A stretch of DNA of 64,000 nt from Candidatus Spongiisociaceae bacterium. GTDB lineage: Bacteria > Actinomycetota > Acidimicrobiia > Spongiisociales > Spongiisociaceae. The notes beneath the pieces are model-generated. The model saw only the letters and a list, made by a program, of their open reading frames with translations. It did not search any database and was not told where the DNA came from. The position numbers and the translations under genes were made by a program. The stretch spans positions 3,360,001 through 3,424,000 of the forward strand of contig CBDCOH010000002.1 of assembly GCA_965219685.1 (NCBI GenBank), given 5' to 3'. Of this stretch, positions 30,628 to 63,983 are shown one piece after another (position 1 is the first letter of the stretch; every line of letters begins with the position of its first letter).

Positions 30628-30882
30628 GAGAGGATCCTGCCGGCGTAGTTCGTTCGTGAAAGTAACGACAGCGAGTCTTGTATCCGGAGGCGCCTACGTC
30701 CCTGTGCCCCCTCGGGTCAATCCCCGTTAGTCTGTCGTCTAGGCCTCTCTGTCGATGGAGTGACTACCGTACCGGAGGTTAAGCGGCTGCGATTGCGCGG
30801 TTGCCCCAGCGCTCAGGATCGCTCCGACAGCGAATGCCTCCCGCTGTTACAGTCGGACGCGTGCCTACGAGGAGGTGAGGGC

Positions 30883-38469: not shown

Positions 38470-38479
38470 CGCGTTCTCC

Positions 38480-39301
38480 TTATGTCTGGTCTTCGCCGGT
38501 GGACAGGTTTCTGAAGGCGCGGACCGTGTTGCGGACGGCGCGCTCGACCGGTATCCGCTCGATGCTCGAAGCCCCGACGAAACCCACCGCGGTCGTGAGC
38601 GGCAGCGCCTCCCGGACGTCGTCGGGCGTGGACAGCCTGCCCCCGTGGAGAAGGGCGATGACCTGCGGATTCACAGCTACAGCGGCGTCGATCAGTGACT
38701 GGGCGTACCCGCAGACCGCTTCGATAGATCGGTCGTCCGAATACCCGACCCTTCCGCCGGTGGTGGGCCCCGAGTGGGTGACGATCACATCCGCTCCCGC
38801 GGCCGCCATGGCGGCGGCGTCATCCGCACTGGCCACATACGCCATGGTGAAGAGGTCGCGAGACCGGGCCAGGCCGATCGCTTCGACCTCACGCCCGAAG
38901 CCGTAGCCGACCATCTCTGCTCTCCGGCGCTGGTCGGGCATGTTCGTGAGGGTGGGAAAGTTGATGATCCCGTCGAACCCGGCCGCCTCGAACTGGTCGA
39001 GCAACCTGCCCAGGTCCCTGCGGGTAGGGTCGTTGGCTTCGATGCCTCCGATGACCGGCGTGGTCGACACCACGTTGAGGATCTCCGATGACATCTCGAC
39101 TGTCTCCCGGTTCGAGTCCCCGAACCGCCAGGTCGGCAGGCCCTTGAGTCGCGACCGACCCGTGCTGTAGACCACGATCAGGTCGGCGTCGCCTTCCTCG
39201 GCGGCCCTGGCAATTATCCCGGCGCTGCATCCGGCCGCCAGCACCGCGTGGCCCGTGGAGATGCGCCCGCGCAGGCGTTCCAGGATGGCTTGTCGTTTCA
39301 A
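38480..39301 (-). CDS. PEP-hydrolase-like TIM-barrel protein (Tm-1-like C-terminal domain family)
   Basis: GIIARAAEEGDADLIVVYSTGR, GIINFPT, H.GPTTGG, LHGG, GFVGASSIERIP. TTG start inferred. Confidence 0.85.
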   Translation of the reverse strand: MKRQAILERLRGRISTGHAVLAAGCSAGIIARAAEEGDADLIVVYSTGRSRLKGLPTWRFGDSNRETVEMSSEILNVVSTTPVIGGIEANDPTRRDLGRLLDQFEAAGFDGIINFPTLTNMPDQRRRAEMVGYGFGREVEAIGLARSRDLFTMAYVASADDAAAMAAAGADVIVTHSGPTTGGRVGYSDDRSIEAVCGYAQSLIDAAVAVNPQVIALLHGGRLSTPDDVREALPLTTAVGFVGASSIERIPVERAVRNTVRAFRNLSTGEDQT

Positions 39302-39442
39302 GTCGGTTCCCTCCGCGTGAGGTTGCGTCCCGTGAGCCTTCCAGCCGCTGTGCGGGATTCCAAACCGCCCCGGCACCGGTCGCCCTCTCCTTGGCGACCG
39401 GCACCGGGCATGCTCGGGATCAGGTCGTCGGTTACTCGGCGC

Positions 39443-44537: not shown

Positions 44538-47282
44538 TCAGGCTTGGTAGGCATCCGGGACAGGCGGTAGGGGCCTCGTGAGCCAGCGGGGGCGGCGGAG
44601 GCCCCCGGGTCCGGGTCCGGGACGGGTCCGGGCCATCCACTCCCGGTAGATGTCGTGGGACTTGGCCGTGTCCACGAAGACATCGCCGTATCGGTCTCCG
44701 GCTTCGGCAGGGCCCAGGCGGACGCGCTGATGCCAGGCATGCATGCCCGACACGGGATCGGGATGAACCGGGAAGGCCAGGTTCTGGTGTACACCGGGAT
44801 CGCGCCACCAGATCCGCTCGCTGTCGGGATCCTCAGACTGGAACGGTTCGATGCCGGTCTTGTGCCTCAGCAGCCAGCCACCCGCGGGGCGCTGGATGTC
44901 CACCAGGGCCGACGACCACCGCTCGTTGCCCATGCCGGCGTCGAGGCGCCACCTCCCCATGTGGTGGGATGCAGCCACCACACCCGGCCTGATCCCCTCG
45001 GTCCGCCAGGCTCGCATCACGAAGTAGCCGATGTCGGTGGATATTCGCACCAGGTCGCCGGTGGCGAATCCGAGCTGGTCGGCGTCGATGGAGTTCATCC
45101 AAAGCGGGTGGCCGTGGCTGATCTCGTACAGGTATTTGGCGTTGCCCGACCGGGTATGGATGAGGGTGGGCAGCCGGAAGATCGGCAGCAGGATGCGCTC
45201 GTCTCCCTCGAGGTCCAGATCGCGCCAGTACACGTGGGACTTGAGGTACGTGGGTATGGCAGCATCCGCCCAGTTCCAGGATTCGAGCGTCTCGGAGTGC
45301 CACTCGAGCAGGCGGGACGGCGAGGCGAATCCGCTCCTACGCTCTCCGTCGACATTCACCCCTGGCTGGTCGGCGCTCGCCGTCTCTTCGTTCAGGCGGT
45401 AGCGGTCGCGGTCGATTTCGAAGGCCCCGTACTTGCGCATGTACCCGAGCGGGGTCAGCCCTTCCTGCCGGGCCTGTTCAGGGAGCCCCGGCACCGAGTT
45501 GTCGAACATCCACCCGTAGTACTCGTCGACAGTCACCGGCCGGGAAGGGTCCGTGGGCGACTCGTACCACCTGCGCACGCCGAGCGATCCGTCCGGGTCG
45601 ATACGCCACGACAGGTCGATCCAGAACTCGTTCTCCTCCCACACCTCGCCCGGGTTGGCCTCGTAGGTGCGCTCGTACCGCTGTCCGGCCCGCTCTCCGG
45701 CCACCCGCAGCACCGGCTGGCGGAAACCGAGCCAGCGGGCTGCATGGGTCTCGTAGGAGTGGGTGTCGTGACGCTCGGCCCCGACCCCCATGGGCAGGAC
45801 GTAGTCGGCGAACCAGGCCGTCTCCGACCAGGTCGGGGTGAGGGCCACGTGGAGGCCGACCTTGTCCTCGTCGGTGAGTGCCTCGAGCCAGGTGAAGCCG
45901 TCGGGGTTGGTCCAGACAGGGTTGTAGACGCGGGTGAAGTAGACCTCGAGGCGTCCCCTCCCCTCCTTGAGGAAGTGCGGCAGGAGGTAGCTCAGCTCGT
46001 AGTGGCTGAGCGGGAACTCCGCCGGCCAGATCAACTCATTCCAGCGGTTGGCCGGGGGCGGCATGTTCCAGTGCTCGGGCTTGAACTTGTCCCATGCGCT
46101 CGGCGAGGTGCCGCCCTCCGTTCCCACCGATCCCGTGAGGACGTGGAGGAAGAAGAGGCAGCGGGCGACCTGCCAGCCACCGAGGTTCCCCGATCCGGCG
46201 GCCCGCCATGTGTGGGAGGCGAAGCGGGTTCCGGCCCCGGCGATACCACGGGCGACGGCCTCGATGCGTTCGGGATCCACCCCTGTCTCCGCGGCGGCGA
46301 ACTCGATCGTGTATTCGGCATAGGTCTCGCGCAGGAGTTCCACGAAGCTTTCGTAGGTGCGTGGGCGTTCCGGAGACCGAGCGGCCAGCGACGCCTCCCA
46401 GTTGACCCACCGGCGCATGAATCCGTGGTCGATGGCGTCCCACTCGATCAACCGGGCGGCGATGGCCAGGAGCATGGCCGCCTCGGTACCCGGCCACGGA
46501 GAGAGCCAGTGGTCGGACATCGACGCGGTATTCGAGAGCCGCGGGTCGATGGTGGCCACCTGCGCCCCCGCCTGGCGGGCCTCGATTATGCGCTGGGCGT
46601 GAGGGTTGAAATAGTGCCCGGACTCGAGTTGGGCCGATAGCAGGAGGATGAAGCGGGCGTTGGCGAAGTCGGCGGACGGGCGGTCGTATCCCATCCACAT
46701 GGCGTAGCCGGTGCGGGCCCCCGACGAGCAGATGTTGGTGTGGCTGTTGTGACCGTCCACGCCCCAGGACCGGAGTATGCGGTCGATGAAGCCGTCCTCT
46801 CCGGGCCGTCCCACGTGGTAGATGATCTCGTCGTGGCGGTCCTCGACCAGCGCGGTGCGGATCCGGGAAGCGATGTCCTGGAGGGCGTCCTCCCAGGAGA
46901 CCTGTTCCCAGTTCCCTCCACCGCGGGCACCGGCCCTGCGCAGCGGGTGGAGAATCCTCTCCGGGTCGTACATCTGGTTGATGGTCGCCGGGCCCTTGGC
47001 ACAGTTGCGGCCCCTCGATCCGGGATGCTCAGGGTTGCCCTCGAAGCGCCGCACCCGACCGTTGTCCTTGTCGACGTAGGCCAGCAGCCCGCACCCGGCC
47101 TCGCAGTTGAAACATGTGGTCGGGACCAGGCGGTAACGTCGCTTGACCCGCTCGGGCCACGCCTTGGCGTCGTACTCCTCCCAGTCGTCCCAGGAGTCGG
47201 TCGGGGGGAAGGGCACCAGGCCACTCCCTGGAACCAGTCGCGGCAGGGCATCCGAGGCGGGCCGGTCCTTCTCCATCGTCAT
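44538..47282 (-). CDS. Molybdopterin oxidoreductase catalytic subunit (DMSO reductase family), no Tat signal
   Basis: TCFNCEAGCG...NCAKG 4Fe-4S site, RILHPLRR, HTNICS (putative Cys Mo ligand), ADYVLP, molydop-binding C-terminus. Confidence 0.92.
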   Translation of the reverse strand: MTMEKDRPASDALPRLVPGSGLVPFPPTDSWDDWEEYDAKAWPERVKRRYRLVPTTCFNCEAGCGLLAYVDKDNGRVRRFEGNPEHPGSRGRNCAKGPATINQMYDPERILHPLRRAGARGGGNWEQVSWEDALQDIASRIRTALVEDRHDEIIYHVGRPGEDGFIDRILRSWGVDGHNSHTNICSSGARTGYAMWMGYDRPSADFANARFILLLSAQLESGHYFNPHAQRIIEARQAGAQVATIDPRLSNTASMSDHWLSPWPGTEAAMLLAIAARLIEWDAIDHGFMRRWVNWEASLAARSPERPRTYESFVELLRETYAEYTIEFAAAETGVDPERIEAVARGIAGAGTRFASHTWRAAGSGNLGGWQVARCLFFLHVLTGSVGTEGGTSPSAWDKFKPEHWNMPPPANRWNELIWPAEFPLSHYELSYLLPHFLKEGRGRLEVYFTRVYNPVWTNPDGFTWLEALTDEDKVGLHVALTPTWSETAWFADYVLPMGVGAERHDTHSYETHAARWLGFRQPVLRVAGERAGQRYERTYEANPGEVWEENEFWIDLSWRIDPDGSLGVRRWYESPTDPSRPVTVDEYYGWMFDNSVPGLPEQARQEGLTPLGYMRKYGAFEIDRDRYRLNEETASADQPGVNVDGERRSGFASPSRLLEWHSETLESWNWADAAIPTYLKSHVYWRDLDLEGDERILLPIFRLPTLIHTRSGNAKYLYEISHGHPLWMNSIDADQLGFATGDLVRISTDIGYFVMRAWRTEGIRPGVVAASHHMGRWRLDAGMGNERWSSALVDIQRPAGGWLLRHKTGIEPFQSEDPDSERIWWRDPGVHQNLAFPVHPDPVSGMHAWHQRVRLGPAEAGDRYGDVFVDTAKSHDIYREWMARTRPGPGPGGLRRPRWLTRPLPPVPDAYQA

Positions 47283-47295
47283 CTCCGTCTTCCCT

Positions 47296-48876
47296 TCATG
47301 ACAGGGGCACGCTCTGGCCCGCCCTGACGAAGGCGTCGTCGGCGAACCAGATGCCGACTAGAGCCGCGAGGCCTCCCAGTTCGGCCACCCACAGAGGAAC
47401 GCCGGAGCCTGCGAGGAAGACCGCGCCGAGCACCAGGGGTATCGCCACCCCGACCACTTGGCCTCCTAGCCACCACTCTCTCGCGTGGGCGCCCCTGGTC
47501 AGATGGTGCATGGCCGCGGCATGGTTGCGGGTCGGGTGCCGAGTGACAAGCTCGACCGCCCCGATCAGCGCCAGCGCCGCCGTGCCGCCCACGAGTGCCC
47601 ACGCGAACGTGCGCTGGGCGGCGGGCTCCAGATCGAAGGCCGCGGCAGCCAGGAGCCCGACCGCACCTCCCACCGCGAAGGCACCCGCCAGCATGTGCCA
47701 CAGGAGCGTCTGGCTCTGCCAGAGGTCCCGACCTTCGGCCTGGCCGAACAGGAATGCGGTGTACCCGGCCACGCCCAAGCCGCCCGCCGCCGCCGCCCAG
47801 ATGAACACCGTCACGGAACCGGCGGCGGCAATGCCGAACAAGAACCACAGGCCGAGGATCACCGCCTGGGCGGCCAGGATCCAGGCGCCCCTGACCAGCC
47901 AAGACCCCGTGTTGCCCCTCGTCAAGAGGTAGTGGAACCGGTCGGGTCGCTTGAGATCCCAGACCAGCAGCACGCCGGTGAGGGCCAGGAAGATCCCGGC
48001 GATCAACGGTGCTCCCCACCGAGCGAACGGGTTGTCCACACCGGCGCCTGACAGCAGCGAGAGAGCCAGGACCATGACGATGCCCGCCGAGATGCCCTTG
48101 GTGAGGAAGTAGCTCGACACCCGCCATCCCCAAGGCATCGGATGGTCGGTGTTGTAGACAACGCGGGGAGGGGCGTCCTTCCGGTGTCCGTGGGAGGATG
48201 CCCGGTCCTTCTTCCGCCCGTTGCCACGGGTGCCGTCCGGAGGCGTCAGGTCGACGGTCATGAACGACGGCGCAGGGTCGCGCCAGATACCCCCGTCGCC
48301 CGGGTCGACGGCGCCCAACGGGTCGATTCCGGCCTCCTCAACCCCCCGGTACCACAGGTTGGGTGCGGTGTTCTGCTCGGGGGACCGCTGGAGCAGGCGT
48401 TCGGCGTGGACTAGCTGGGAGATAGGGGTGGTCGGGTCGTCGAGGTCGCCCGAGATGATCGCTCCTTCGGGACACACCACCACACAGGCCGGCTCGAGTC
48501 CCACCTCGACCCGGTGCACGCAGTAGTTGCACTTCTGGGCCGTGTGATCGTGTGGATCGATGTACAAGGCGTCGTAGGGACATGCCTGCATGCAGCTCTT
48601 GCACCCGATACAGAGACTGGTGTCGAAATCGACTATCCCGTCCTCTCGCCGGAAGAGCGCGTTGGTGGGGCAGATCGACACGCAGGGGGCGTCCGTGCAG
48701 TGGTTGCACCGCATGACCGAGAAGGACCGCTTCGTGTCGGGCCAGGTTCCCGTCTCGATGTACTTGACCCAGGTGCGGTCAACCCCCAGAGGGACGTCGT
48801 GCTCGGTCTTGCACGCCACCGTGCACGCGTGGCAGCCGATACACGCCGTCTGGTCGATGACGAAACCGAATTGCAA
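47296..48876 (-). CDS. 4Fe-4S dicluster (NrfC/DmsB-like) fused to an NrfD/PsrC membrane anchor
   Basis: CIGCHAC, CNHC..APCVSICP, CIGCKSCMQACPY, KCNYC; then PWGW, DLKRPDRF, SWL..G and multiple TMs. Confidence 0.92.
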   Translation of the reverse strand: MQFGFVIDQTACIGCHACTVACKTEHDVPLGVDRTWVKYIETGTWPDTKRSFSVMRCNHCTDAPCVSICPTNALFRREDGIVDFDTSLCIGCKSCMQACPYDALYIDPHDHTAQKCNYCVHRVEVGLEPACVVVCPEGAIISGDLDDPTTPISQLVHAERLLQRSPEQNTAPNLWYRGVEEAGIDPLGAVDPGDGGIWRDPAPSFMTVDLTPPDGTRGNGRKKDRASSHGHRKDAPPRVVYNTDHPMPWGWRVSSYFLTKGISAGIVMVLALSLLSGAGVDNPFARWGAPLIAGIFLALTGVLLVWDLKRPDRFHYLLTRGNTGSWLVRGAWILAAQAVILGLWFLFGIAAAGSVTVFIWAAAAGGLGVAGYTAFLFGQAEGRDLWQSQTLLWHMLAGAFAVGGAVGLLAAAAFDLEPAAQRTFAWALVGGTAALALIGAVELVTRHPTRNHAAAMHHLTRGAHAREWWLGGQVVGVAIPLVLGAVFLAGSGVPLWVAELGGLAALVGIWFADDAFVRAGQSVPLS

Positions 48877-49053: not shown

Positions 49054-49374
49054 CTAGAGATCGAGTTGGACCCGGATTGCCCTATCCACATCTGCCAGGT
49101 CGGCATCCGAGAGGCGGCCCATCATCCTGTGCAGCCGAGCCTTGGACGCGGTGGTGATCTGGTCGGCCTTCGCCTTGTGTCGCTTACCCGTCACGTCGAC
49201 GTAGGCCTCGCTCGGATAGAGGCGGGACACGTTGGAGGTGATCGGGACCACCTGGACACGGTTCAACGCCCGATTCGCTGCGTCGTTGCTGACCACGACG
49301 GCCGGTCGCGTCTTGCGGACCTCTCCTCCGGGAGCAGGATCGAACGTCACCCACCAGACGTCACCGCGGTTCAT
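49054..49374 (-). CDS. mazF: PemK/MazF family toxin
   Basis: [37 protein letters not shown]. Confidence 0.93.
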
Positions 49375-49588
49375 CGGCGGCATCGCCTATCAGTCCTTCG
49401 GACCATGCCAAAGCCGCAGACTCCCGGGCCTCGTCGGCTGCCATCTCGCGGTATGCAGCCTCTAGATCGGCGTCGACCACGTGCGGGCGTGCCAGACCTT
49501 CGAGAAACCTGCTGATCTTTCTGGGGCCGACCCGCCGATAAAGGCCCGCGTAGACCTCGTCGTCGATGGTGATCGTCAGCTTCTTCAT
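49361..49588 (-). CDS. Cognate antitoxin (RHH/CopG-like)
   Basis: [12 protein letters not shown]..., [19 protein letters not shown]; overlaps the toxin start; TACACGT repeats upstream (49588-49610). Confidence 0.85.
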
Positions 49589-49735: not shown

Positions 49736-51448
49736 CTACCCGCTGCTGTACTTGGCGTACTTCTCCAGGAGCCGGACCGGTTTCTGGAGCGCGTCGCGGC
49801 GGAACGGCTCACCGAGTTCCTGGCTCACCTGGATCTCGAGGACGGTGGGCCGCTCGGACTCGACCGCGGCTCGCAGAGCGTCTCCGACCTCTCCCGGCTT
49901 CTCCACCATGACACCCTCGGCGCCCATGGCGCGGCCGATGGCCGCGAAACTGGGATTCTCCAGCATGGTCGCCACGTAGCGGTCGTCGTAGAAGTCGATC
50001 TGGTTGCGCTTCTCGGCGCCCCACTGGCGGTTGTTGAACACGCATGCCACCACCGGGATGTTCTCCCGGACGCAGGTCAGCACCTCGGCCAGGCTCATCC
50101 CCCAGGCCCCGTCCCCGACGTACGCGATGGCGGGCCGCTCCGGCGCGGCGACCTTGGCGCCCATCGCGGTGGGGAACGCGTAGCCGCAGTTCCCGAACAT
50201 CATCGCCGCGAACATGCTGTTGGGCCGGTCGAAGCTCAGGTACGAGTTGGCCACCGAGCAGATGTTGCCGATGTCGGTGGTGACCATGGCATTCGCCGGC
50301 ATGGCCAGCTCCAGTTCCCTCAGCGCGGTACGGGGCGCCATCGGCACGTCCCGAGAGGAGGAGATGGAATCGAGTTCCCGGGACCAGGCCTCCTTCTCCG
50401 CCCGGACCCGGGCCAAACGTTCGGCCCGGTTGGCCTCGGCGCTGCGCTCAACGCCTGCCAGCCTCCTCGCCAACTCGGCCGCCACAGCACCAGCATCCCC
50501 GTGGATGGCCACATCGGCCGGCTTGACCAGCCCTAGCGTCCGGTGGTCGGAGTCGACCTGGATGAGTCGGGCGTCCTCCGGCCAGTACTCGATGCCGTAC
50601 TGGGGCAGCGTGCCGAACGGCCCCAACCGAGTACCCAGGGCCAGGATCACGTCCGCCTGCGAAACGATCCTCATCGCTGCCTTGGAACCCTGGTAACCGA
50701 TCGGTCCACATGCCAGTTCATGGCTGGCCGGGAACGCATCGTTATGGAGGTAGGAACATATGACGGGGGCTCCCAGCAACTCGGCCAACGCCACTGCGGC
50801 GGCCTGCCCTCCGCCCATCACCACGCCCCCTCCCGCCATCACCACCGGGAAGCGGGCCTCGGCCAGGAGCCGCGAAGCAGCAGTCAGACCTTCCGGGCCA
50901 CCGGACGAACGCTCGATCACCAGAGGATCCCTGATGTCGAAGTCGGCCTCGCCGTAGAAGAAGTCACGCGGGATGTTGATCTGCACCGGGCCCCGCTCCG
51001 CCATCGCCAGGGTGAAAGCCCGATGGGTTAGCTCCGCGATCCGTTCGAAGCGCTTGACCTCGACCTGGTACTTGGTGATCTTCGAGAAGATCGGCATCTG
51101 ATCGGTCTCTTGGAAGCCGCCCAGGCCCTCCCCCATCGAACCGGCCTGCGGGGTGACCGCGACAACGGGCGAGTGGGCCCAGAAGGCCGCGGCGATGGCC
51201 GTGACGAAGTTGGTGATACCCGGACCGTTCTGGCCGATGCAGACGCCATGCCGGTTGGACACCCGGCTGTAGCCGTCGGCCATGTGGGCGGCGTTCTGCT
51301 CGTGGGCAACCGGCCAGAACCGGATACCGGCGGGCTCGAAGATGTCGAGGGCCTCCATGAAGGCCGACCCGACGATCCCGAATACATCTGTGACCCCCTG
51401 GGCGGCGAGGGTCTCGACAAAGGCCTCGCTAGCGGTCATCCGCACCAT
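49736..51448 (-). CDS. xsc: Sulfoacetaldehyde acetyltransferase (ThDP)
   Basis: MTASEAFVETL, FGIVGSAFM, QNGPGITNF, GYQGSKA, TDIGN, FGNCGY, QWGAEKRNQ, ELGEPFRRDAL; GGAGGAGG RBS. Confidence 0.9.
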   Translation of the reverse strand: MVRMTASEAFVETLAAQGVTDVFGIVGSAFMEALDIFEPAGIRFWPVAHEQNAAHMADGYSRVSNRHGVCIGQNGPGITNFVTAIAAAFWAHSPVVAVTPQAGSMGEGLGGFQETDQMPIFSKITKYQVEVKRFERIAELTHRAFTLAMAERGPVQINIPRDFFYGEADFDIRDPLVIERSSGGPEGLTAASRLLAEARFPVVMAGGGVVMGGGQAAAVALAELLGAPVICSYLHNDAFPASHELACGPIGYQGSKAAMRIVSQADVILALGTRLGPFGTLPQYGIEYWPEDARLIQVDSDHRTLGLVKPADVAIHGDAGAVAAELARRLAGVERSAEANRAERLARVRAEKEAWSRELDSISSSRDVPMAPRTALRELELAMPANAMVTTDIGNICSVANSYLSFDRPNSMFAAMMFGNCGYAFPTAMGAKVAAPERPAIAYVGDGAWGMSLAEVLTCVRENIPVVACVFNNRQWGAEKRNQIDFYDDRYVATMLENPSFAAIGRAMGAEGVMVEKPGEVGDALRAAVESERPTVLEIQVSQELGEPFRRDALQKPVRLLEKYAKYSSG

Positions 51449-51614
51449 CATCATCCTCCTCCGTAGGCAAGCGAGAGGCACCGTGCTTCGTTGGTCACCC
51501 GGCTTGAAGTCGCCGGGCTGGATTGCCCACCCCGGCCCCCTGAAGGGTAACCAGCCGTATAGTGCTGAGCACACTATCCGGGTCGAGGTCCGCTACCGGA
51601 GGCAGAGAAGGCAA

Positions 51615-52052
51615 ATGGATGCCGTAGAGGAACTGCAGGCCGTCGAGGAGATAAAGCGCCTCAAGGCTCGCTACTGCCGCTTTGTCGACCTGAACCGCCG
51701 CGACGATCTGCGGGACCTGTTCACCGAGGACATCGTCTACGAGTTCCAGGGATGGAGACAGGGGCAGGGGGCCGACTCGTTCGCAGGCTCCGCCGAGGAC
51801 TTCGCCGACCGTCTCTCCTTCCACCGGGTATCGATGCCTGACATCGAGATCCTCTCCGAAACGACCGCCCGCGGCGTCTGGGCGATGGTGGACATCATCG
51901 AGTACCCGCCGACTTCGGGGAAGCAAGGCTCCCGGGGATTCGGCTGGTATCACGAGGAGTACCGCAAGGTGGACGGTATGTGGAAGATCTCGTCCCTGCT
52001 GCTGGTCCGCCACCGAAGCGAGGAACTGGGCGCCCGCAACACCCGGGCATGA
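51615..52052 (+). CDS. SnoaL-like/NTF2 family protein
   Basis: EEIKRLKARYCRFVD, LFTED, ARGVWAM.D, GWYHEEYRKVDGMWKI. Confidence 0.88.
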   Translation: MDAVEELQAVEEIKRLKARYCRFVDLNRRDDLRDLFTEDIVYEFQGWRQGQGADSFAGSAEDFADRLSFHRVSMPDIEILSETTARGVWAMVDIIEYPPTSGKQGSRGFGWYHEEYRKVDGMWKISSLLLVRHRSEELGARNTRA

Positions 52053-52059
52053 GATCACC

Positions 52060-53481
52060 ATGGGCGTGAAGTCGATCGTCGGCGGGACCGTGGTGACCAT
52101 GGACCCGGACCGCAGAATCGTCGAGAACGGCGTGGTCGTGATCGAGGACCAGCACATCGCCGCGGTCGGCCCGGCCTCCCGTGTCCTCCCCCCGCGGGGC
52201 GCCGACGTCATCGACGCGGCCGGGATGGTGGTGCTGCCCGGCCTGATCAACGGCCACACCCACGTCCCGCAGATCCTGCTGCGCGGGTACTCGTCCAACC
52301 AGCACCGCGATGTCTGGGACTGGCTGACCAATGTGGTGCATCCCGGGCTGGCCGTGTACGAAGCGAGCGACATCCGGACCGCGGCCCGCCTCTACAGCGT
52401 CGAAGCGATCCGCTCGGGCATGACATGCTTCGTAGACAATGAGGACGCCTGGCCGGACCGCACCCAGGAGGCAATCGGGCACGTGATCGACACCTACCAA
52501 GAGACCGGGATGCGGGCGATGGTGGCCCGGATGATGTTCGACGAGAAGCCCGATCAACTCCGAGATCTCATCCGATCCCTCCGGGCGCAGGAACCGCAGG
52601 TCGCCCACGTCGACCTCTGGCGTGGCACCGAGCAACTGCTGGGGGATGTCGAGCGCCTTATCAGGACGTACGACGGCGTCGCGGGAGGAAGGATCCGGGT
52701 CTGGCCGTCGCCGGTGGGGGTGATCTGCTCGGATCGAATGTTCGAGAGCAGTCGCCGCTTGGCCAGGGACAACGGGACGATGTGGACCATCCACCTGGTG
52801 CAAGGCCCGGCCGGTGCCGAGAATCCGGGACCCAGCAGCACCGAGGCACTGGACCTCCGTGGTCATCTCGACCCCCGCCTGCTCGCCAGCCATTGCGTGG
52901 GCCTGAGCCGAACGGACATCCGTATCCTCAAGGCGACCGGCGTGAAGGGCTGCACCCAGGTGGTCTCCAACTGCTTCCTGGGTATGGGCATGGCGCCTGT
53001 CCCCCGACTATTGGAGGCCGGCCTGCCACTGGCGGTCGGTACCGACGACGTCAACTGCAACGGGACGGTCAACCTGCTCTCCGACATGAAGATCCTGGCC
53101 CTGGTGCATCGCGCCCTGGCCAACGATCCGTCGACCCTCCCGGCCGACCAGGTTCTGGAGATGGCTACGATCAACGGTGCCCGGGCGGTGGGGATGGAGA
53201 GCGAGATCGGGTCGATCGAAGCCGGAAAGCGGGCCGACATAATTCTCATCGACCTCGGACACGCCCAGATGACCCCCACGCACCATCTACCCTCGGCGGT
53301 GGTCTTCCAGACCTACGGCAACGAGGTGGACACCGTGCTCATCGACGGCAATATCGTGATGAGAAACCGGCGGCTGACCTGGCTCACGGCCGCCGAGGAA
53401 CGCGCCCTCTACCGGGAGGCGGCCGAGCGATCCACCGGGATAAGCCTCCGAGCCGGTATCCGTGCCTCTAATGGTAAATGA
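52060..53481 (+). CDS. AtzA/TriA-like amidohydrolase (triazine chlorohydrolase/deaminase clade)
   Basis: HTHVPQILLRG, ARMMFD, GGRIRVWP, MWTIH, QVVSN, GTDDVNCN, FQTYGNEVDTVLIDGN; colinear with the recalled AtzA sequence over about 470 aa. Confidence 0.8.
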   Translation: MGVKSIVGGTVVTMDPDRRIVENGVVVIEDQHIAAVGPASRVLPPRGADVIDAAGMVVLPGLINGHTHVPQILLRGYSSNQHRDVWDWLTNVVHPGLAVYEASDIRTAARLYSVEAIRSGMTCFVDNEDAWPDRTQEAIGHVIDTYQETGMRAMVARMMFDEKPDQLRDLIRSLRAQEPQVAHVDLWRGTEQLLGDVERLIRTYDGVAGGRIRVWPSPVGVICSDRMFESSRRLARDNGTMWTIHLVQGPAGAENPGPSSTEALDLRGHLDPRLLASHCVGLSRTDIRILKATGVKGCTQVVSNCFLGMGMAPVPRLLEAGLPLAVGTDDVNCNGTVNLLSDMKILALVHRALANDPSTLPADQVLEMATINGARAVGMESEIGSIEAGKRADIILIDLGHAQMTPTHHLPSAVVFQTYGNEVDTVLIDGNIVMRNRRLTWLTAAEERALYREAAERSTGISLRAGIRASNGK

Positions 53482-53573: not shown

Positions 53574-55205
53574 GTGAACGTCGCAGACGCCATCGCCGAG
53601 ATCCTGAAGCGGGAAGGCGTCGAGTTCCTCGTCAGCTATCCCGTCAACCCGATCATCGAAGCCTGCGCCGAAGCGGACATCCGCACCATCGTCGTGCGCC
53701 AGGAACGGACCGGCCTGCATATGGCGGATGCCTACAGCAGGGTCAACTCGGGGGACCGCATCGGCGTGTTCGCCATGCAGCACGGACCGGGGGCCGAGAA
53801 CGCCTTCGGCGGCGTCGCCCAGGCCTACGGCGAGTCCGTCCCGATCCTCGTTCTCCCGGCCGGCTATCCACGCCGGGAAGCCCAGGTGGCTCCCAACTTC
53901 AACTCCGCCCTCAACTACCGCCACGTGACCAAGTGGACCGAACACGTGCCGGTTCCGGAGGCGCTCACCGAGGTCATGCGCAGGGCGTTCGCCCGCCTCC
54001 GCAACGGGCGGCCCCGGCCGGTGATGGTCGAAGTCCCCTTGGACCTGTTCGGTGAAGAACTCGCCATGCCACTCGGATACACGCCGAGCTTCTCCACACG
54101 GGTCGGCCCGGACCCGGCCGATGTATCCGCCGCGGCAGAGGTCCTGGCAGATGCGCGAAGCCCGGTGATCTACGCAGGACAGGGGGTTCACTACGCCAAG
54201 GCCTGGCCGGAGTTGCGGCAACTGGCGGAGTTGTTGAATGCCCCCGTCACCACCAGCCTGGGCGGCAAGAGCGCATTCGACGAGGCACACCCCCTGGCGC
54301 TCGGCTCGGCGGGACGGTCCACGACCCTCGCCGTCCACAGGTTCCTGGACGAGGCCGACGTGATCCTCGGGATAGGGTGCAGTTTCACCAGCACGACGTT
54401 CGGCCTGCCGATGCCTGCGGGCAAGACGTTCATCCACGCCACCCTCGACCCCGACGACCTGAACAAGGACCTGGAGATCCACCATCCTGTCGTCGGCGAC
54501 GCGCAACTCGTACTGCAGGCGCTGCTGGACGAACTCGAGTACCGCGCCCTGCCCCACACAGAGACACGACGGGGAGTCCCCGGCCGGATCCGCCACTTCA
54601 ACCAAGGCTGGATCGCCGACTGGCTGCCGAGGCTGGCATCCGACGAGCAGCCGCTCTCTCCCTACCGGGTCATCTGGGACCTGCTCCACACCGTCGACCC
54701 CGGTGAGACCATCGTCACCCACGATGCAGGGAGTCCCCGCGACCAGATGTCTCCCTTCTGGGTGGGCCGGGAACCCCTCAGCTACCTGGGGTGGGGGAAG
54801 ACGACGCAACTCGGGTACGGGCTGGGCCTGGCAATGGGGGCGAAGCTGGCCCGGCCCGAGAAGCTCTGTGTCAACGTGTGGGGTGACGCGGCGATCGGCT
54901 TCACGGGGATGGACTTCGAGACTGCGGTGAGGGAACGCATCCCGATCCTGTCCGTCCTCCTCAACAACTCCTCGATGGCGATCGAGATCCCCATCATGCA
55001 GGTCGCCCAGGAGAAGTACGGCAGCACCGACATCTCCGGAAACTACGCAGACATGGCGAGGGCCTTCGGAGGCTACGGGGAGCGGGTCACCGAACCCTCG
55101 GAGATTATCCCGGCCATCCGGCGCGGCATCGACCAGACCCGTGAGGGCACACCGGCACTGCTGGAGTTCATAACCGCCAAGGAGTACACCTATCCGGTCT
55201 TCTGA
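53574..55205 (+). CDS. ThDP-dependent enzyme (acetolactate synthase-like)
   Basis: RQERTGLHMADAY, QHGPG, PVIYAGQG, WGDAA...LNN ThDP motif. Confidence 0.9.
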   Translation: MNVADAIAEILKREGVEFLVSYPVNPIIEACAEADIRTIVVRQERTGLHMADAYSRVNSGDRIGVFAMQHGPGAENAFGGVAQAYGESVPILVLPAGYPRREAQVAPNFNSALNYRHVTKWTEHVPVPEALTEVMRRAFARLRNGRPRPVMVEVPLDLFGEELAMPLGYTPSFSTRVGPDPADVSAAAEVLADARSPVIYAGQGVHYAKAWPELRQLAELLNAPVTTSLGGKSAFDEAHPLALGSAGRSTTLAVHRFLDEADVILGIGCSFTSTTFGLPMPAGKTFIHATLDPDDLNKDLEIHHPVVGDAQLVLQALLDELEYRALPHTETRRGVPGRIRHFNQGWIADWLPRLASDEQPLSPYRVIWDLLHTVDPGETIVTHDAGSPRDQMSPFWVGREPLSYLGWGKTTQLGYGLGLAMGAKLARPEKLCVNVWGDAAIGFTGMDFETAVRERIPILSVLLNNSSMAIEIPIMQVAQEKYGSTDISGNYADMARAFGGYGERVTEPSEIIPAIRRGIDQTREGTPALLEFITAKEYTYPVF

Positions 55206-55248
55206 AAGCCGATCGGGCTCCCCTCCTGCTTGCGGGGACGCCTGACCC

Positions 55249-56229
55249 GTGGTCGAGCGGCCCACGGTGTGCATCTTCCCGGACTTCGAGCCCGACCTCG
55301 TGGCGGCGATCGAAGAGAACTGCCGGGTCCGGTTCGTGGACATGGCATCCCCACGCGTCCACCAGCTCGCTGCCCTGCACGACGCCCAAGGTGTCCTGCT
55401 CAACCCGCTGACCCCGGCCGACCGGGAGTTCTTCGAGGCAGCGCAGCGGCTGCGGGTTCTGTCCACCGCCAGCGTCGGATACGACACGATCGACATCGGC
55501 GAGGCCACCCGGCGCGGCATCATGGTCTGCCACACCCCAGGCGTTCTCACCGCGGCGGTGGCCGATCTGACCATGGTGTTGATCATCTCCCTGGCGAGAC
55601 GGCTCTTCGACAACGAGCGGTACGTCCGATCGGGAGGATGGGCCAGGGCCGAGCCACCCCCGGACCTCGGCTCCGATGTCGACGGCAAGACACTCGGCGT
55701 GGTCGGCTTCGGTCGGATCGGCCAGGAGGTCACCCGCCGCATGCAGGGCCTCGGGATGCGCACGCTGTGGTATGACGCGATCGGCGACCCCCATCCGCAG
55801 GCACCGGCCAGCCGGTACCGCCCACTCCACGAGTTACTGGGCGAGTCGGACTTCGTCACCCTCCACGCCGACCTGAACGCGGCTTCCCGGCATCTCATCG
55901 GGGCCGAGGAACTGAAACTCATGAAGCCCACCGCCTACCTCATCAACACCGCCCGGGGCGGGCTGATCGACCAGAGCGCCCTGACCGAGACTTTGAGGTG
56001 CGGCACCCTCGCCGGCGCCGCTCTCGACGTCCTCGAGGTGGAGCCACCCGATCCAGACGATCCGCTCCTGGTCCTGCCCAACGTGGTGTGCCTTCCCCAC
56101 ATCGGGACCGCCACCACGGAAACCCGCCGCCGGATGCGTGAGATGGCAGTACGCAACCTGCTCGCAGGCCTCGCCGGCGAGACCCCGCCCGCCGTTGCGA
56201 ACCCGGGGTTGGTGAGTGGTGAGTGGTGA
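55249..56229 (+). CDS. D-isomer 2-hydroxyacid dehydrogenase (glyoxylate/hydroxypyruvate reductase-like)
   Basis: VGYDTID, GFGRIG, INTARG, LDV.EVEP, PHIG. Confidence 0.92.
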   Translation: MVERPTVCIFPDFEPDLVAAIEENCRVRFVDMASPRVHQLAALHDAQGVLLNPLTPADREFFEAAQRLRVLSTASVGYDTIDIGEATRRGIMVCHTPGVLTAAVADLTMVLIISLARRLFDNERYVRSGGWARAEPPPDLGSDVDGKTLGVVGFGRIGQEVTRRMQGLGMRTLWYDAIGDPHPQAPASRYRPLHELLGESDFVTLHADLNAASRHLIGAEELKLMKPTAYLINTARGGLIDQSALTETLRCGTLAGAALDVLEVEPPDPDDPLLVLPNVVCLPHIGTATTETRRRMREMAVRNLLAGLAGETPPAVANPGLVSGEW

Positions 56230-56251
56230 GTGGTGAATGGTGAATGGTGAA
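56210..56251 (+). repeat. Heptamer array (TGGTGAG)3(TGGTGAA)3
   Basis: Supplies VSGEW* to the dehydrogenase and the ATG of the next gene. Confidence 0.93.
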
Positions 56252-57934
56252 ACAGAACGGGCAACGCAGCTGATCACCGGTGCCCGCGCCCTCGCCGAGA
56301 TGCTCCACGGGTACGGCGTGACTCACGTCTTTATGGTTCCGGCCATCCTGCGGCGCACCTTGGTGGAACTGGAGCGGTTCGGGGTGCGGCGCATCCATAC
56401 GCACGGTGAGAAGGCGGCCGCCTATATGGCCGACGGGTACGCACGGATGGCGGGTCGCCCGGGAGTGTGCATGGCCCAAGCTGTCGGTGCGCTCAACCTG
56501 GCGGCCGGCCTCCGCGATGCTCATCTGGCCAATTCTCCCGTCGTTGCCCTCACCGGAGGCCGCGACCCGACCGCGGCCGGCAAGGGCGTCTACCAGGAGG
56601 TGGACGATCTGCCCGCCTTCGTCAACGTCACCAAGTTCAGCGCCGCCGTCGACGCGGTGGAGCAGCTTCCCGGCCTGGTTCGCCGGGCCTTCCGCACCGC
56701 GGTGTCCGGCCGTCCCGGACCGGTGCACCTCCAGTTCGCCGGCAACGAAGGCCAGGTCGACCTCGGTCTGGCCGATCTCGACGCCTCCGTCGACACCCGG
56801 TTCCTGTCCGTACCACCGCTCCGGCCCCTGGCCGACCCGGAAGCCGTGTCTGCCGCGCTAAGACTGCTCGATCGCGCCGAGCGGCCGGTGCTCGTGGCTG
56901 GCGGCGGAGTTCGAGCTTCGCGAGCCGCCGCCGAGTTGGTGGCCGTCGCTGAACATCTCGGCATCCCCGTGGTCACCTCTCTCAACGGGAAGGACACGAT
57001 TCCAGGAGGCCACCCTCTCTGTGTGGGCGTCGTCGGCACGTACTCGCGGAGCGCCGCCAACCGGGTCGTAAACCAGGCGGACCTGGTCTGCTTCGTCGGT
57101 TCGAGCACCGGCAGCATGACCACCCATTTCTGGCAGGTTCCAGCGCCGGGGATTCCCGCCATCCAGATCGACATCGATCCCGAGATGACCGGCCGCAACT
57201 ACCCCCTACGGGTCGCCATCACTGCGGACGCCCGCACAGCGCTCGCCGCCATCCTCGAGAGAGCCCAACCGACGCATTCTGGCCGGGGGGAGTGGGTCGC
57301 CGCGGCGCGCCGCGAAGTAGCCGCCTGGCGGCACCAACATCTCCGGCGCCTGCGCTCGGACGCGGTGCCCATCCGCCCGGAGCGGATCTGCGCGGAGTTG
57401 ACCGATCTGGTCCCCGACGACGCCTGCGTGGTGGTCGATACCGGCCACGCCGGGATGTGGATGGGCGGCATGTTCGACACCCGCACCCCCCATCAGCGCT
57501 ACCTGCGCAGCGCAGGCCACCTCGGTTGGGCGTTCCCCGCCGCGCTGGGCGCCAAGTGCGCCGCCCCCGACCGCCCCGTAGTCTGCTTCACCGGCGACGC
57601 CGGGTTCTGGTACCACATAGCCGAGGTCGAAACGGCGGTTCGATGGGGCATCAACACAGTCACCGTGGTCAACAACAACTCGTCGGGGAACCAGTCCACC
57701 CTTGGCTTCGACCGCGCCTACGGCGGGGAGCAGACCGCTGAAGGACGCCGCCTGTGGACCTTCACCGACGTGGACTTCGCCCGGCTCGCCGAGGGTATGG
57801 GGGCACTGGGCATCCGGGTCGAGCAGCCCGACCAGATCGCCCCCGCCTTGGACCGCGCCCTGGGAGCGGAGCAACCGGCCGTCATCGACGTCGTCACCGA
57901 TATCGAAGCCCTGGCTCCCCTCGCCGTGACCTGA
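56237..57934 (+). CDS. ThDP-dependent enzyme (acetolactate synthase large-subunit-like)
   Basis: HGEKAAAYMADGYAR, GRPGPVHL, GDAG...NN. Confidence 0.9.
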   Translation: MVNGETERATQLITGARALAEMLHGYGVTHVFMVPAILRRTLVELERFGVRRIHTHGEKAAAYMADGYARMAGRPGVCMAQAVGALNLAAGLRDAHLANSPVVALTGGRDPTAAGKGVYQEVDDLPAFVNVTKFSAAVDAVEQLPGLVRRAFRTAVSGRPGPVHLQFAGNEGQVDLGLADLDASVDTRFLSVPPLRPLADPEAVSAALRLLDRAERPVLVAGGGVRASRAAAELVAVAEHLGIPVVTSLNGKDTIPGGHPLCVGVVGTYSRSAANRVVNQADLVCFVGSSTGSMTTHFWQVPAPGIPAIQIDIDPEMTGRNYPLRVAITADARTALAAILERAQPTHSGRGEWVAAARREVAAWRHQHLRRLRSDAVPIRPERICAELTDLVPDDACVVVDTGHAGMWMGGMFDTRTPHQRYLRSAGHLGWAFPAALGAKCAAPDRPVVCFTGDAGFWYHIAEVETAVRWGINTVTVVNNNSSGNQSTLGFDRAYGGEQTAEGRRLWTFTDVDFARLAEGMGALGIRVEQPDQIAPALDRALGAEQPAVIDVVTDIEALAPLAVT

Positions 57935-57946
57935 CACTTCTTCGCA

Positions 57947-58273
57947 TCACGACGGAAGGCCGGTCCCCCCGGAAGCGGGAGCGTGAACAGCGATCATGTC
58001 CAGGCGTTCCGAAAGACGGTCTTGGGTGACCTCGAGGTCGTACTGGCTCTGCAACCCCATCCAGAAGGCCGGAGAATTACCGAAGAAACGAGCCAGCAGC
58101 AAAGCCGTCTCCGCGGTAATGGACCGCTCCCCGTGGACGATGGCATGAATCCGCCTCGCGTCCACCCCGATGGACTTCGCCAGCCGATACTGGGTGATGT
58201 TCATGGGGACGAGGAACTCCTCGTTGAGAACTTCTCCCGGATGGATAGGGGGTAGTTTCGTTTCGGTGGTCAT
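57947..58273 (-). CDS. higA: HigA family antitoxin
   Basis: PIHPGEVL.EEFL, ITQYRLAK, ITAETALLLARFFG.SPAFWMGLQSQYD. Confidence 0.93.
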   Translation of the reverse strand: MTTETKLPPIHPGEVLNEEFLVPMNITQYRLAKSIGVDARRIHAIVHGERSITAETALLLARFFGNSPAFWMGLQSQYDLEVTQDRLSERLDMIAVHAPASGGTGLPS

Positions 58274-58286
58274 CGCCCCTCCACTT

Positions 58287-58581
58287 TCAGTGGTAGTCCA
58301 CTATCTCGACCCGGTAGGCGTCGCCGTCGGCCCAGACGAAACAGATCCGCCACTGGTCGTTGATGCGGATGCTGTGCTGCCGTCCCGATCTCCCGACAGA
58401 GCCTCCAGCCGGTTTCCTGGCGGCACCCGTAGGTCGGCGACGCTTGTGGCGTTGTTCAGGATCATCAGCTTCCTCTGTGCTCGCCGCTGGACATGCTCAG
58501 GCAACCTGCGAACACGACGGCGTTCGGCGACCGCCTGTGTGTCCCTGTCCCGGTAGCTCGGTCCCCGTAGCTCCGAATCAC
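58287..58581 (-). pseudogene. higB: HigB toxin pseudogene (14-nt duplication and 1-nt deletion)
   Basis: Reconstructed MIRSYRDRDT...RKL..L..A....DLRVPPGNRLEALSGDRDG/QHSIRINDQWRICF...VEIVDYH*; GGAGCTACGGGGAC/CGAGCTACCGGGAC duplication near the start; second shift near 58380. Confidence 0.88.
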
Positions 58582-63158: not shown

Positions 63159-63983
63159 TCATCCGCGCACCGCGCGGAAGCGGGCCACACGATCGACGAT
63201 GGCTGCTTCGGTAGGAAGCCGCTCGATGCTGGACGCGCCGACGAACCCGTTTAGTCTCGGAACCAGTTGCAGCGCCTCCTCGAGGTCGGAGGGTTCGGAG
63301 ATGGGACCGCCGTGGCAAAGGACGGGAATGAACCTTCCGGCCTCGTCGGCAACCCCGCAGATCGCCTCGAGGACAGGCACCAGAGATGGCACGGTCCGCC
63401 GGTCGGAGGCACCGATCATGCCTCCTGTGGTCAGCCCAACGTGAGCAACCAGGACATCGGCGCCGGCCTCGGCCATGGCGGCCGCCTCTTCGGCGCTGAA
63501 CACGTAGGGCATGGTGAACATCCCCATACGGGAGGCCAGCCCGATCATCGCCACCTCGGCCGAGTAGGACATGCCGGTCGCCTCCAGCGCGCGCCGGAAG
63601 CCGCCGTCTATCAGGCCCACGGTCGGAAAGTTCTGGACCCCGGAGATCCCGCATCCCGCCAACTCGTCCAGGAACCTCCCCATGTCGCGGAACGGATCGG
63701 TCCCGCACACCCCGGCGATCACCGGCATCCTGTCGACCACGGTGACGATCTCCCTCGTCATCTCCAGGACGGTCCGGTTGGCGTCCCCGTAGGGCATAAG
63801 ACCGGCCAGCGATCCCCGTCCCGCCATCCGGTACCGGCCCGAGTTGTAGATGACGACGGCGTCCGCCCCGCCTGCCTCCGCGCACTTGGCGGAGAGGCCG
63901 GTCCCGGCCCCGGCGACCACGAGCGTCTCGTTCCGGCGTGCCTTCGCGATCAGGGCGCCTGCCAGATCATTGGTCTCAGGCAC
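63159..63983 (-). CDS. PEP-hydrolase-like TIM-barrel protein (Tm-1-like family), second paralogue
   Basis: GAGTGLSAKCAEAGGAD, YNSGRYRMAGRGSLAGLMPYGDAN, VQNFPTVG, CHGGPI, GASSIERLP. Confidence 0.9.
   Translation of the reverse strand: MPETNDLAGALIAKARRNETLVVAGAGTGLSAKCAEAGGADAVVIYNSGRYRMAGRGSLAGLMPYGDANRTVLEMTREIVTVVDRMPVIAGVCGTDPFRDMGRFLDELAGCGISGVQNFPTVGLIDGGFRRALEATGMSYSAEVAMIGLASRMGMFTMPYVFSAEEAAAMAEAGADVLVAHVGLTTGGMIGASDRRTVPSLVPVLEAICGVADEAGRFIPVLCHGGPISEPSDLEEALQLVPRLNGFVGASSIERLPTEAAIVDRVARFRAVRG

Follow-up and report, generated by a model that had tools for sequence, protein, structure and literature searches.

An amidohydrolase of the AtzA/TriA branch with glutamine at the HxxE position, encoded beside a SnoaL_4 protein on a Candidatus Spongiisociaceae chromosome

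AtzA and TriA are a textbook case of how quickly enzymes can evolve, but no natural relative of theirs has been characterised. AtzA, the atrazine chlorohydrolase of Pseudomonas sp. ADP (Protein Data Bank (PDB) entry 4v1x), is an Fe(II)-dependent hexamer and is encoded on the conjugative plasmid pADP-1, where transposase genes of IS1071 and ISPps1 flank atzA. According to the available parts of Noor et al. (2012) and Peat et al. (2015), its specificity as a dechlorinase is determined by Asn328/Ser331 and Phe84. TriA, a melamine deaminase, differs from AtzA at nine residues, and in the accessible text of Noor et al. (2012) its Cys331/Asp328 pair was assigned to the protonation of a poor, amine leaving group. 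The triazine hydrolase TrzN of Arthrobacter aurescens (3ls9 and others) belongs to the same superfamily and has the same overall fold. In the present work, a stretch of 64,000 nucleotides from a Candidatus Spongiisociaceae bacterium (GenBank assembly GCA_965219685.1, contig CBDCOH010000002.1, positions 3,360,001 to 3,424,000 of the forward strand; hereafter, the window) was analysed. It carries a gene for an amidohydrolase of this branch (P0001) in which the glutamate of the HxxE motif is replaced by glutamine, and directly upstream of it a gene for a SnoaL_4 protein (P0002).

The comparison of P0001 with AtzA was made at the levels of sequence and fold. In a phmmer search of the PDB, the top match of P0001 was AtzA 4v1x (E 1.1e-123, residues 4-469), followed by a methylthioadenosine/S-adenosylhomocysteine (MTA/SAH) deaminase (3.7e-44) and by the distant TrzN (about 3e-27, 23-24% identity). 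The window protein and AtzA are of equal length and colinear, with an identity of 44.7% (210 of 470 aligned columns; 44.8% by tblastn). An AlphaFold model of P0001, built with 51 sequences, had a predicted local distance difference test (pLDDT) value of 93.7 and superimposed on 4v1x with a template modelling (TM) score of 0.97 and a root-mean-square deviation of 1.6 A. The next fold matches reached TM 0.84-0.87, TrzN stood at about 0.83, and the top 50 PDB fold matches were all amidohydrolases. The full-length colinearity with AtzA, which had been noticed in a preliminary description of this DNA, was thus borne out. The open reading frames (ORFs) named there and all of the motifs quoted were likewise found again, namely HTHVPQILLRG (residues 66-76 of P0001), GGRIRVWPSP (209-218), HLVQ (245-248), QVVSNCFLGMGMAPVP (300-315), GTDDVNCN (327-334) and FQTYGNEVDTVLIDGN (416-431). 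In the HMMER alignment, HLVQ was opposite HMAE of AtzA and GTDDVNCN was opposite GTDNGNSN. AtzA has Glu246, Asn328/Ser331 and Phe84, whereas the window protein has Gln248, Asp330/Cys333 and Val85, and none of the dechlorinase determinants is present in it. The gene pair and the residues discussed below are located in the window as follows.

51615 to 52052, plus strand: gene for a BaiE-like SnoaL_4/NTF2 protein (P0002, 145 amino acids; based on the ORF, Pfam and the BaiE match)
52060 to 53481, plus strand: gene for an amidohydrolase of the AtzA/TriA branch, predicted mononuclear-metal enzyme of HxxQ type (P0001, 473 amino acids; based on the ORF, Pfam, the AtzA match and the model)
52255 to 52263, plus strand: codons of His66-Thr67-His68, the HxH metal ligands of strand 1 (AtzA His66/His68), invariant in the 51-sequence alignment
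52792 to 52794, plus strand: codon of His245, metal ligand (AtzA His243)
52801 to 52803, plus strand: codon CAA of Gln248, which takes the place of the HxxE glutamate (Glu246 in AtzA)
52807 to 52836, plus strand: Gly/Pro-rich loop PAGAENPGPS (residues 250-259) after Gln248, replacing the acidic E/D250 segment of Glu-bearing relatives
52891 to 52893, plus strand: codon of His278, metal ligand (AtzA His276)
53044 to 53058, plus strand: codons of Asp329 (metal ligand, AtzA Asp327), Asp330 and Cys333 (the TriA-type Asp328/Cys331 pair)

The ORF of P0002 ends 7 nt before the ATG of the amidohydrolase gene. In Pfam, P0001 was assigned to Amidohydro_1 (8.5e-54) and P0002 to SnoaL_4 (4.8e-25).

The replacement of HMAE by HLVQ, with CAA at 52801-52803, was confirmed, and it was demonstrated that this is not a private mutation of the window. 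Gln was present in all 23 sequences of the clade formed by P0001 and its close relatives (at least 63% identity; metagenome-assembled genomes (MAGs) of Acidimicrobiia, including Candidatus Spongiisocius), a set that combines proteins with locus translations and in which some near-duplicates repeat protein clusters. Among the 51 best word-index matches, which were aligned, 16 had HLVQ (the query and P0003-P0017, 63-92% identity), two unrelated proteins had HVAQ and 33 had Glu. In a library clustered at 50% identity and searched exhaustively, the HLVQ clade was a single cluster (representative P0006), and the next representative was 49% identical. The Gln codon was read in nine DNA copies: it was CAA in two of them (the window and locus L003) and CAG in the other seven. 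The pairwise ratio of nonsynonymous to synonymous substitution (dN/dS) of the hydrolase gene was 0.10-0.32 (28 pairs) with dS up to 1.2. As estimated from these substitutions, the hydrolase gene is under purifying selection. When 265 sequences of the family were examined, Glu was found at the HxxE position in 216, and Gln was found in 14 further proteins that fall in at least three other places of the tree (at least four in all). Ten of these 14 proteins were scanned against NCBIfam, and none reached a curated cutoff. Because Gln recurs at separate places in the tree, a Glu-less active site appears to be a repeated and retained solution in this family. Considering that Gln is fixed across a conserved clade, the enzyme probably performs a different hydrolysis from that of its AtzA/TriA relatives.

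Proteins of this amidohydrolase type were also counted in the genome to which the window belongs. In 4.42 Mb, 18 matches were found on contig C2, mostly in three clusters (at about 1.40-1.47, 1.83-1.93 and 2.23-2.26 Mb) with some singles. In a MAFFT alignment, seven of the 18 lacked the HxxE Glu and had HLSA, HCSA, HQSW (twice), HCAG, HVGA or HLVQ in its place.

The metal site and the substrate pocket of the clade were compared in AtzA numbering with those of 29 Glu-bearing relatives, using the positions listed in the available part of Peat et al. (2015). The five metal ligands of AtzA (H/H/H/H/D) were kept at the same positions in 23 of 23 clade sequences, as were Asp330 and Cys333; the ligands were also invariant in the 51-sequence alignment. 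P0001 has the (beta/alpha)8 fold and all of the ligand features of mononuclear subtype III of the amidohydrolase superfamily, the cog0402-type deaminase/chlorohydrolase group (HxH after strand 1, His after strands 5 and 6, Asp after strand 8), and the Glu after strand 5 that also characterises this subtype is absent. The pocket of the clade has Gln for Glu246, Gly or a gap for Glu/Asp250, His for Tyr93 (His94 of P0001), Thr or Ile for Phe89, and Val for both Leu84 and Leu92. Along with His94, the residues Trp86, Trp187 and Gly220 are fixed there anew. In the relatives, HxxE and E/D250 were each kept in 29 of 29 sequences. The clade has thus lost two pocket acids together, and it is predicted to retain the amine leaving-group relay proposed by Noor et al. 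Apart from residues 251-254, within the loop after Gln248, no internal part of the model was of low confidence.

Similar comparisons were made with the other described enzymes. TriA (P0037, and a TriA-like gene on the Klebsiella plasmid NZ_CP084848.1) is about 45% identical to the window protein and shares with it the Asp/Cys pair and the branch of the tree; however, the Glu of HxxE, Leu84/Leu92 and an acid at position 250 are all retained in TriA, whereas the window clade has Gln, Val/Val (Val85 and Val93) and Gly. The Glu-bearing relatives (P0018-P0049 and P0060), which come from metagenomes and from a small number of Actinomycetota genomes, are 43-51% identical to P0001 and share its DD.NC motif and its ligands. 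For TrzN, the available text of Peat et al. (2015) gives Thr at the site of the strand 8 Asp ligand, whereas the window protein keeps Asp329; the engineered E241Q change in TrzN is the same Glu-to-Gln replacement that the window clade carries naturally.

The position of P0001 in the family was studied with a quick IQ-TREE tree (66 rows, LG+C20; support by the Shimodaira-Hasegawa-like approximate likelihood ratio test (SH-aLRT) only). The 16 rows of the HLVQ clade grouped with an SH-aLRT value of 100 on a stem of length 0.56. They were contained in a clade of 42 rows (SH-aLRT 99) that also included AtzA, the TriA-like Klebsiella plasmid protein, P0037 and P0060, and in which the order of the sub-clades is without resolution. 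Proteins labelled MTA/SAH deaminase formed the outgroup, and P0001 scored below the curated cutoffs of the equivalogs for MTA/SAH and 5'-deoxyadenosine deaminase, which fall in that outgroup. A grouping with generic deaminases, which the preliminary description had named as the outcome that would speak against it, was therefore not found: the AtzA match was at 1e-123, as compared with 4e-44 for MTA/SAH deaminase, and the AtzA/TriA clade was supported at 99. Judged from its sequence, P0001 is a chromosomal member of the AtzA/TriA-containing branch and is other than a generic deaminase. The finding is an uncharacterised variant enzyme, an HxxQ clade within this branch, rather than a new kind of system.

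The protein encoded upstream was analysed in the same way. Among solved structures, P0002 was closest to the BaiE bile-acid 7-alpha-dehydratases (E from 5.6e-12 to 2.9e-10), and a putative scytalone dehydratase came next. The identity to BaiE is roughly 30% by eye, and in HMMER alignments with 4l8o and 4leh, Y20, D25, H70, D93, Y112 and R132 of P0002 corresponded to BaiE Y30, D35, H83, D106, Y126 and R146, whose functional roles were taken from the accessible part of a review. All six residues were invariant or at least 90% conserved in 40 homologues of P0002, and the dN/dS of the SnoaL gene was 0.08-0.26 (21 pairs). In all likelihood, P0002 is a functional dehydratase or isomerase of the Tyr/Asp/His kind. 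The six residues are common to many actinobacterial SnoaL_4 proteins, and the substrate of P0002 need not be a steroid. BaiE dehydrates a 7-alpha-hydroxy-3-oxo-delta4 bile-acid CoA ester and is encoded in the bai operon. P0002 has neither a bai operon nor a CoA-ligase context; its neighbours are a sulfoacetaldehyde acetyltransferase (Xsc), the amidohydrolase or thiamine diphosphate (ThDP) enzymes.

Seven related genome loci (L003-L009) were compared with the window; in six of them (L003-L008) the hydrolase is 78-93% identical, and in L009 it is of a type that is 64% identical. The SnoaL gene was found directly upstream of every hydrolase of the at least 78% type, in seven of seven genomes (the window and L003-L008). 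The 64% type, seen in L009 and in the metagenome locus L033, has no SnoaL gene and is neighboured by epimerase, aldehyde dehydrogenase, DUF952, UPF0261 and PEP-hydrolase-like genes. The pairing with a SnoaL protein, to which the preliminary description had drawn attention, thus held throughout the at least 78% type; however, the SnoaL gene also occurs without a hydrolase, as described below. A complex of the two proteins was predicted in two runs (0.00 and 0.00 against a mark of 0.32), with no controls run, and no inference was drawn from it.

Taken with the retained ligands and the rebuilt pocket, these results led us to consider P0001 a predicted competent mononuclear-metal enzyme whose acid/base machinery and pocket would have been rebuilt for a natural substrate other than a basic aminotriazine, a proposal to which we attach even chances of being right or wrong. 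In such an enzyme, Asp329 would deprotonate the metal-bound water, which is one of the two routes proposed for AtzA by Peat et al., and the activated water would attack an electrophilic sp2 carbon of the substrate. Gln248 would serve only as a neutral hydrogen-bond partner to a heteroatom of the substrate and would shuttle no proton, and Cys333, backed by Asp330, would protonate a poor, amine-type leaving group, as proposed for TriA. Since the pocket is less acidic and more aromatic, a neutral or acidic N-containing ring or an amidine compound is suggested as the substrate; it would be less basic than an aminotriazine and would probably be taken up from the host or from sea water. The BaiE-like SnoaL_4 protein would probably be a separate enzyme of the same route. 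A Tyr/Asp/His dehydratase requires a carbonyl, and a hydrolytic deamination could unmask one for it.

Several observations weigh against this explanation. The mechanism is carried over from proposals for AtzA and TriA that their authors, in the available text, call untested. No named NCBIfam model reached its cutoff for P0001, and there is consequently no functional anchor; the best scores were 270.7 bits for PRK06038 (cutoff 609) and 266.2 bits for PRK07228 (cutoff 522). The HxxE Glu is the proton shuttle in the canonical deaminases of the group, so that deamination without it would be unusual. In the accessible part of Peat et al. (2015), Glu241 of TrzN is the proton donor for poor leaving groups, and E241Q variants of TrzN were crystallised with ligands, as their PDB entry titles state, which suggests that the change cripples TrzN. 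Because the clade sequences repeat clusters, the independent lineages are fewer than 23 and form about three sub-clades. The link to the SnoaL protein is also loose in places. At the syntenic locus of genome G401, Xsc, SnoaL and a ThDP enzyme (L028:568-2199) are present with no hydrolase between them, and in G405 and G406 Xsc and SnoaL are kept and no hydrolase match was found at E <= 1e-90. Since the SnoaL gene is found without the hydrolase, the idea of a shared pathway is weakened, and the SnoaL protein is not an obligate partner. The context beyond the SnoaL gene is not conserved, and therefore no pathway can be read from the neighbourhood.

The alternative that survives best is that P0001 catalyses a reaction of a different class, such as ring-opening, hydrolysis of an amide or ureide, or a hydration coupled to the SnoaL dehydratase; we consider it credible but doubtful. 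Here, Gln would be the neutral hydrogen-bond partner of a carbonyl oxygen or an N-H, a role for which its ability both to donate and to accept hydrogen bonds is suitable, and Asp329 would be the sole base, as in cyclic amidohydrolases. The loss of two pocket acids and the gain of His94 fit an oxo-substituted or acidic substrate, and the tight linkage to a BaiE-like dehydratase, which acts on carbonyl-activated substrates, agrees with this as well. The seven Glu-less paralogues among the 18 of the same genome point to broad non-deaminase chemistry in the organism. However, the nearest characterised relatives all substitute ring substituents and leave the ring closed, and there was no ring-opening enzyme among the closer solved relatives. 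In addition, the simplest meaning of the kept Asp/Cys pair is protonation of a leaving group.

The preliminary description had raised the possibility of a hydrolytic dehalogenase for halogenated N-heterocycles. In such an enzyme, which would have no Glu shuttle, only good leaving groups would be expelled, and halogenated metabolites available in a sponge are conceivable substrates. The replaced residue corresponds to the TrzN-type proton donor for poor leaving groups, and halides "depart readily" without Glu according to the available text of Peat et al. (2015); AtzA proves that the scaffold is capable of dechlorination, and the relatives of P0001 belong to Candidatus Spongiisocius and Candidatus Spongiisociaceae. 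Against this, AtzA, the sole dechlorinase of the branch, retains its Glu and uses Asn/Ser, whereas all 23 clade sequences have Asp/Cys, a state that an enzyme specialised in dehalogenation should have abandoned. In the accessible part of Noor et al. (2012), the C331S change in TriA raised dechlorination 24-fold, and the fixed Asp/Cys pair consequently argues against such a specialised enzyme. Family scans of the neighbouring ORFs showed no halogen-related gene near the locus. The proposal thus found no direct support and is regarded as improbable, and the locus is not evidence for a natural dehalogenase.

A dead binding protein that kept the fold and lost turnover together with Glu is very improbable, since, despite the Glu in 216 of 265 family sequences and the use of E241Q TrzN variants for ligand-bound crystal structures (entry titles), no clade sequence deviates in the five metal ligands or in the Asp/Cys pair, dN/dS is low over the range of dS given above, Gln was kept through a synonymous codon change, and the pocket residues are fixed rather than drifting.

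The bearing of these sequences on the direction of AtzA/TriA evolution was also studied. The Asp/Cys pair had been taken in the preliminary description as a sign of affinity to TriA. It was found, however, that in the 29 Glu-bearing relatives Asp is present at AtzA position 328 in 29 and Cys at 331 in 27. Therefore, Asp/Cys is the common, and probably the ancestral, state of the whole family and not diagnostic of TriA, and Asn/Ser of AtzA is a derived exception. At three other sites, the relatives had Leu84 in 27, Leu92 in 27 and Asp125 in 19 cases. These TriA states of the relatives make Phe84, Val92, Glu125, Asn328 and Ser331 of AtzA look derived. The nearest natural relative of AtzA that was sampled, P0060, is 57.8% identical to it, groups with AtzA/TriA at SH-aLRT 100 and has the TriA residue at eight of the nine positions where AtzA and TriA differ (as listed in the available parts of Noor et al., 2012, and Peat et al., 2015). 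P0018 and P0019 are about 51% identical to AtzA, as compared with 44.7% for the window protein. The window protein is thus a natural relative within the AtzA/TriA branch (SH-aLRT 99), as had been suggested; however, since P0060, P0018 and P0019 are closer, it is not the nearest one, and the HLVQ hydrolase is not the ancestor of AtzA. At the time of Noor et al. (2012), according to its accessible text, the sequences were too few to decide the ancestral state, and a literature search for a later phylogenetic treatment of AtzA/TriA ancestry found nothing relevant.

The gene on the Klebsiella pneumoniae plasmid NZ_CP084848.1 (L002:3001-4425) was observed to be a natural AtzA/TriA intermediate that differs by eight residues from pADP-1 AtzA (L001:3001-4425). 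It is TriA-like at positions 84, 92, 125, 219, 255, 328 and 331 and AtzA-like at 217 and 253. The plasmid is mobilizable and 16 kb in size, and the gene adjoins those for an NCS2 permease, a nucleoside deaminase and a carbamate kinase.

The related loci were found in MAGs of Acidimicrobiia, including Candidatus Spongiisocius and Candidatus Spongiisociaceae. In a distribution search at E <= 1e-90, the loci found within the family matched L003-L009 in identity and gene order and are therefore not extra genomes. A match was present in 3 of the 7 genomes from the window's own genus and in 3 of the 8 from a second genus of its family. None was obtained in the 9 genomes that make up the rest of the family, nor in the 16 that represent other families within the order. 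Elsewhere in the phylum, 3 of 400 genomes had a match, with identities of 43-46%.

A metagenome scan with generic patterns left 80 loci, of which one belonged to the clade (L033, with HLVQ), and the other 79 were at most 35% identical. The hydrolase gene counts among the accessory genes of a narrow lineage. In the ESM Atlas, only generic "amidohydrolase" and "NTF2" clusters were obtained, and the literature searches made on HxxQ enzymes and on the host lineage returned nothing bearing on the HLVQ clade.

The setting of the locus agreed with the preliminary description, in which the gene was called chromosomal and free of flanking insertion sequences. It is located at 3.41 Mb of contig C2 in an assembly of 4.42 Mb and two contigs, and the same gene pair is syntenic on the chromosomes of related MAGs, in contrast to the plasmid-borne atzA. 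A family scan of 27 ORFs from 30.7 to 64 kb, which took in only part of the small ORFs, revealed no transposase family. A plasmid origin was also considered and rejected: when 49.0-58.4 kb was compared with 72,556 plasmids by megablast, nothing but two short matches of no relevance was obtained. In four related loci, the SnoaL-hydrolase pair is directly flanked by a molybdopterin/FeS-NrfD oxidoreductase operon on one side and by an ABC-2 transporter on the other. In the window, the genes next to the pair are as follows.

49736 to 51574, minus strand: Xsc-type ThDP enzyme, divergent neighbour (NCBIfam TIGR03457, 861.5 bits against a cutoff of 676.4)
53574 to 57934, plus strand: downstream variable cassette with a ThDP enzyme (PRK06154 type), a D-2-hydroxyacid dehydrogenase and a second ThDP enzyme

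The first ThDP gene of the cassette scored 855 bits with NCBIfam PRK06154 (cutoff 607); in G401 it comes right after the SnoaL gene. In the genus of the window, the Xsc gene adjoins the SnoaL gene; it is absent from L004, L005, L006 and L008, and the complete ThDP/dehydrogenase/ThDP cassette was found only in L003 among the seven related genome loci. As neither is conserved across related loci, Xsc and the cassette were rejected as pathway partners. Together they place three ThDP enzymes inside 8 kb.

Further features of the window were observed around the locus. Genes for a molybdopterin oxidoreductase (914 amino acids) and a fused 4Fe-4S/NrfD membrane protein (526 amino acids) at 44538-48876 on the minus strand are 87-93% conserved and syntenic across related MAGs, and they form a fixed left border. 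Type II toxin-antitoxin modules border the genome-variable block on both sides (49054-49588 and 57947-58504, both on the minus strand); one has a MazF-like toxin with a small upstream ORF, and the other has a HigA-like helix-turn-helix protein together with a short ORF that, at the DNA level, matches a gene for a RelE/ParE toxin. PEP_hydrolase-like (PF09370) genes recur at 37612-39376 and 63159-63983 of the window, both on the minus strand, and at L009:2598-7751. In the window they adjoin an NAD epimerase gene; in L009 and L033 they adjoin UPF0261, DUF952, aldehyde dehydrogenase and epimerase genes by the 64%-type hydrolase. Upstream in the window, a sulfatase gene (35972-37615, minus strand) and a gene for an M24 peptidase of creatinase/prolidase type (30760-32121, plus strand) are found beside an ABC sugar-type uptake system.

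With regard to the organism, the locus points to a catabolic step in an amidohydrolase-rich, uncultured lineage of Acidimicrobiia (18 paralogues in one 4.4-Mb genome). With regard to the family, the HxxQ clade offers a ready test of catalysis by a Cys-Asp pair and a strand 8 Asp without the supposedly indispensable HxxE Glu. The outgroup series, with TriA states at eight of nine diagnostic sites in the nearest natural relative, bears on the direction of change between AtzA and TriA. It is conceivable, though unlikely, that the clade is a natural, selected design free of the Glu shuttle, based on the strand 8 Asp with His278 and on the Cys-Asp relay, which acidimicrobial sponge associates would use together with the BaiE-like dehydratase on a host-derived, possibly halogenated heterocycle. 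If this were true, AtzA would also have arisen from a TriA-like deaminase state, and the AtzA/TriA scaffold would have been catalytically plural in nature before herbicides.

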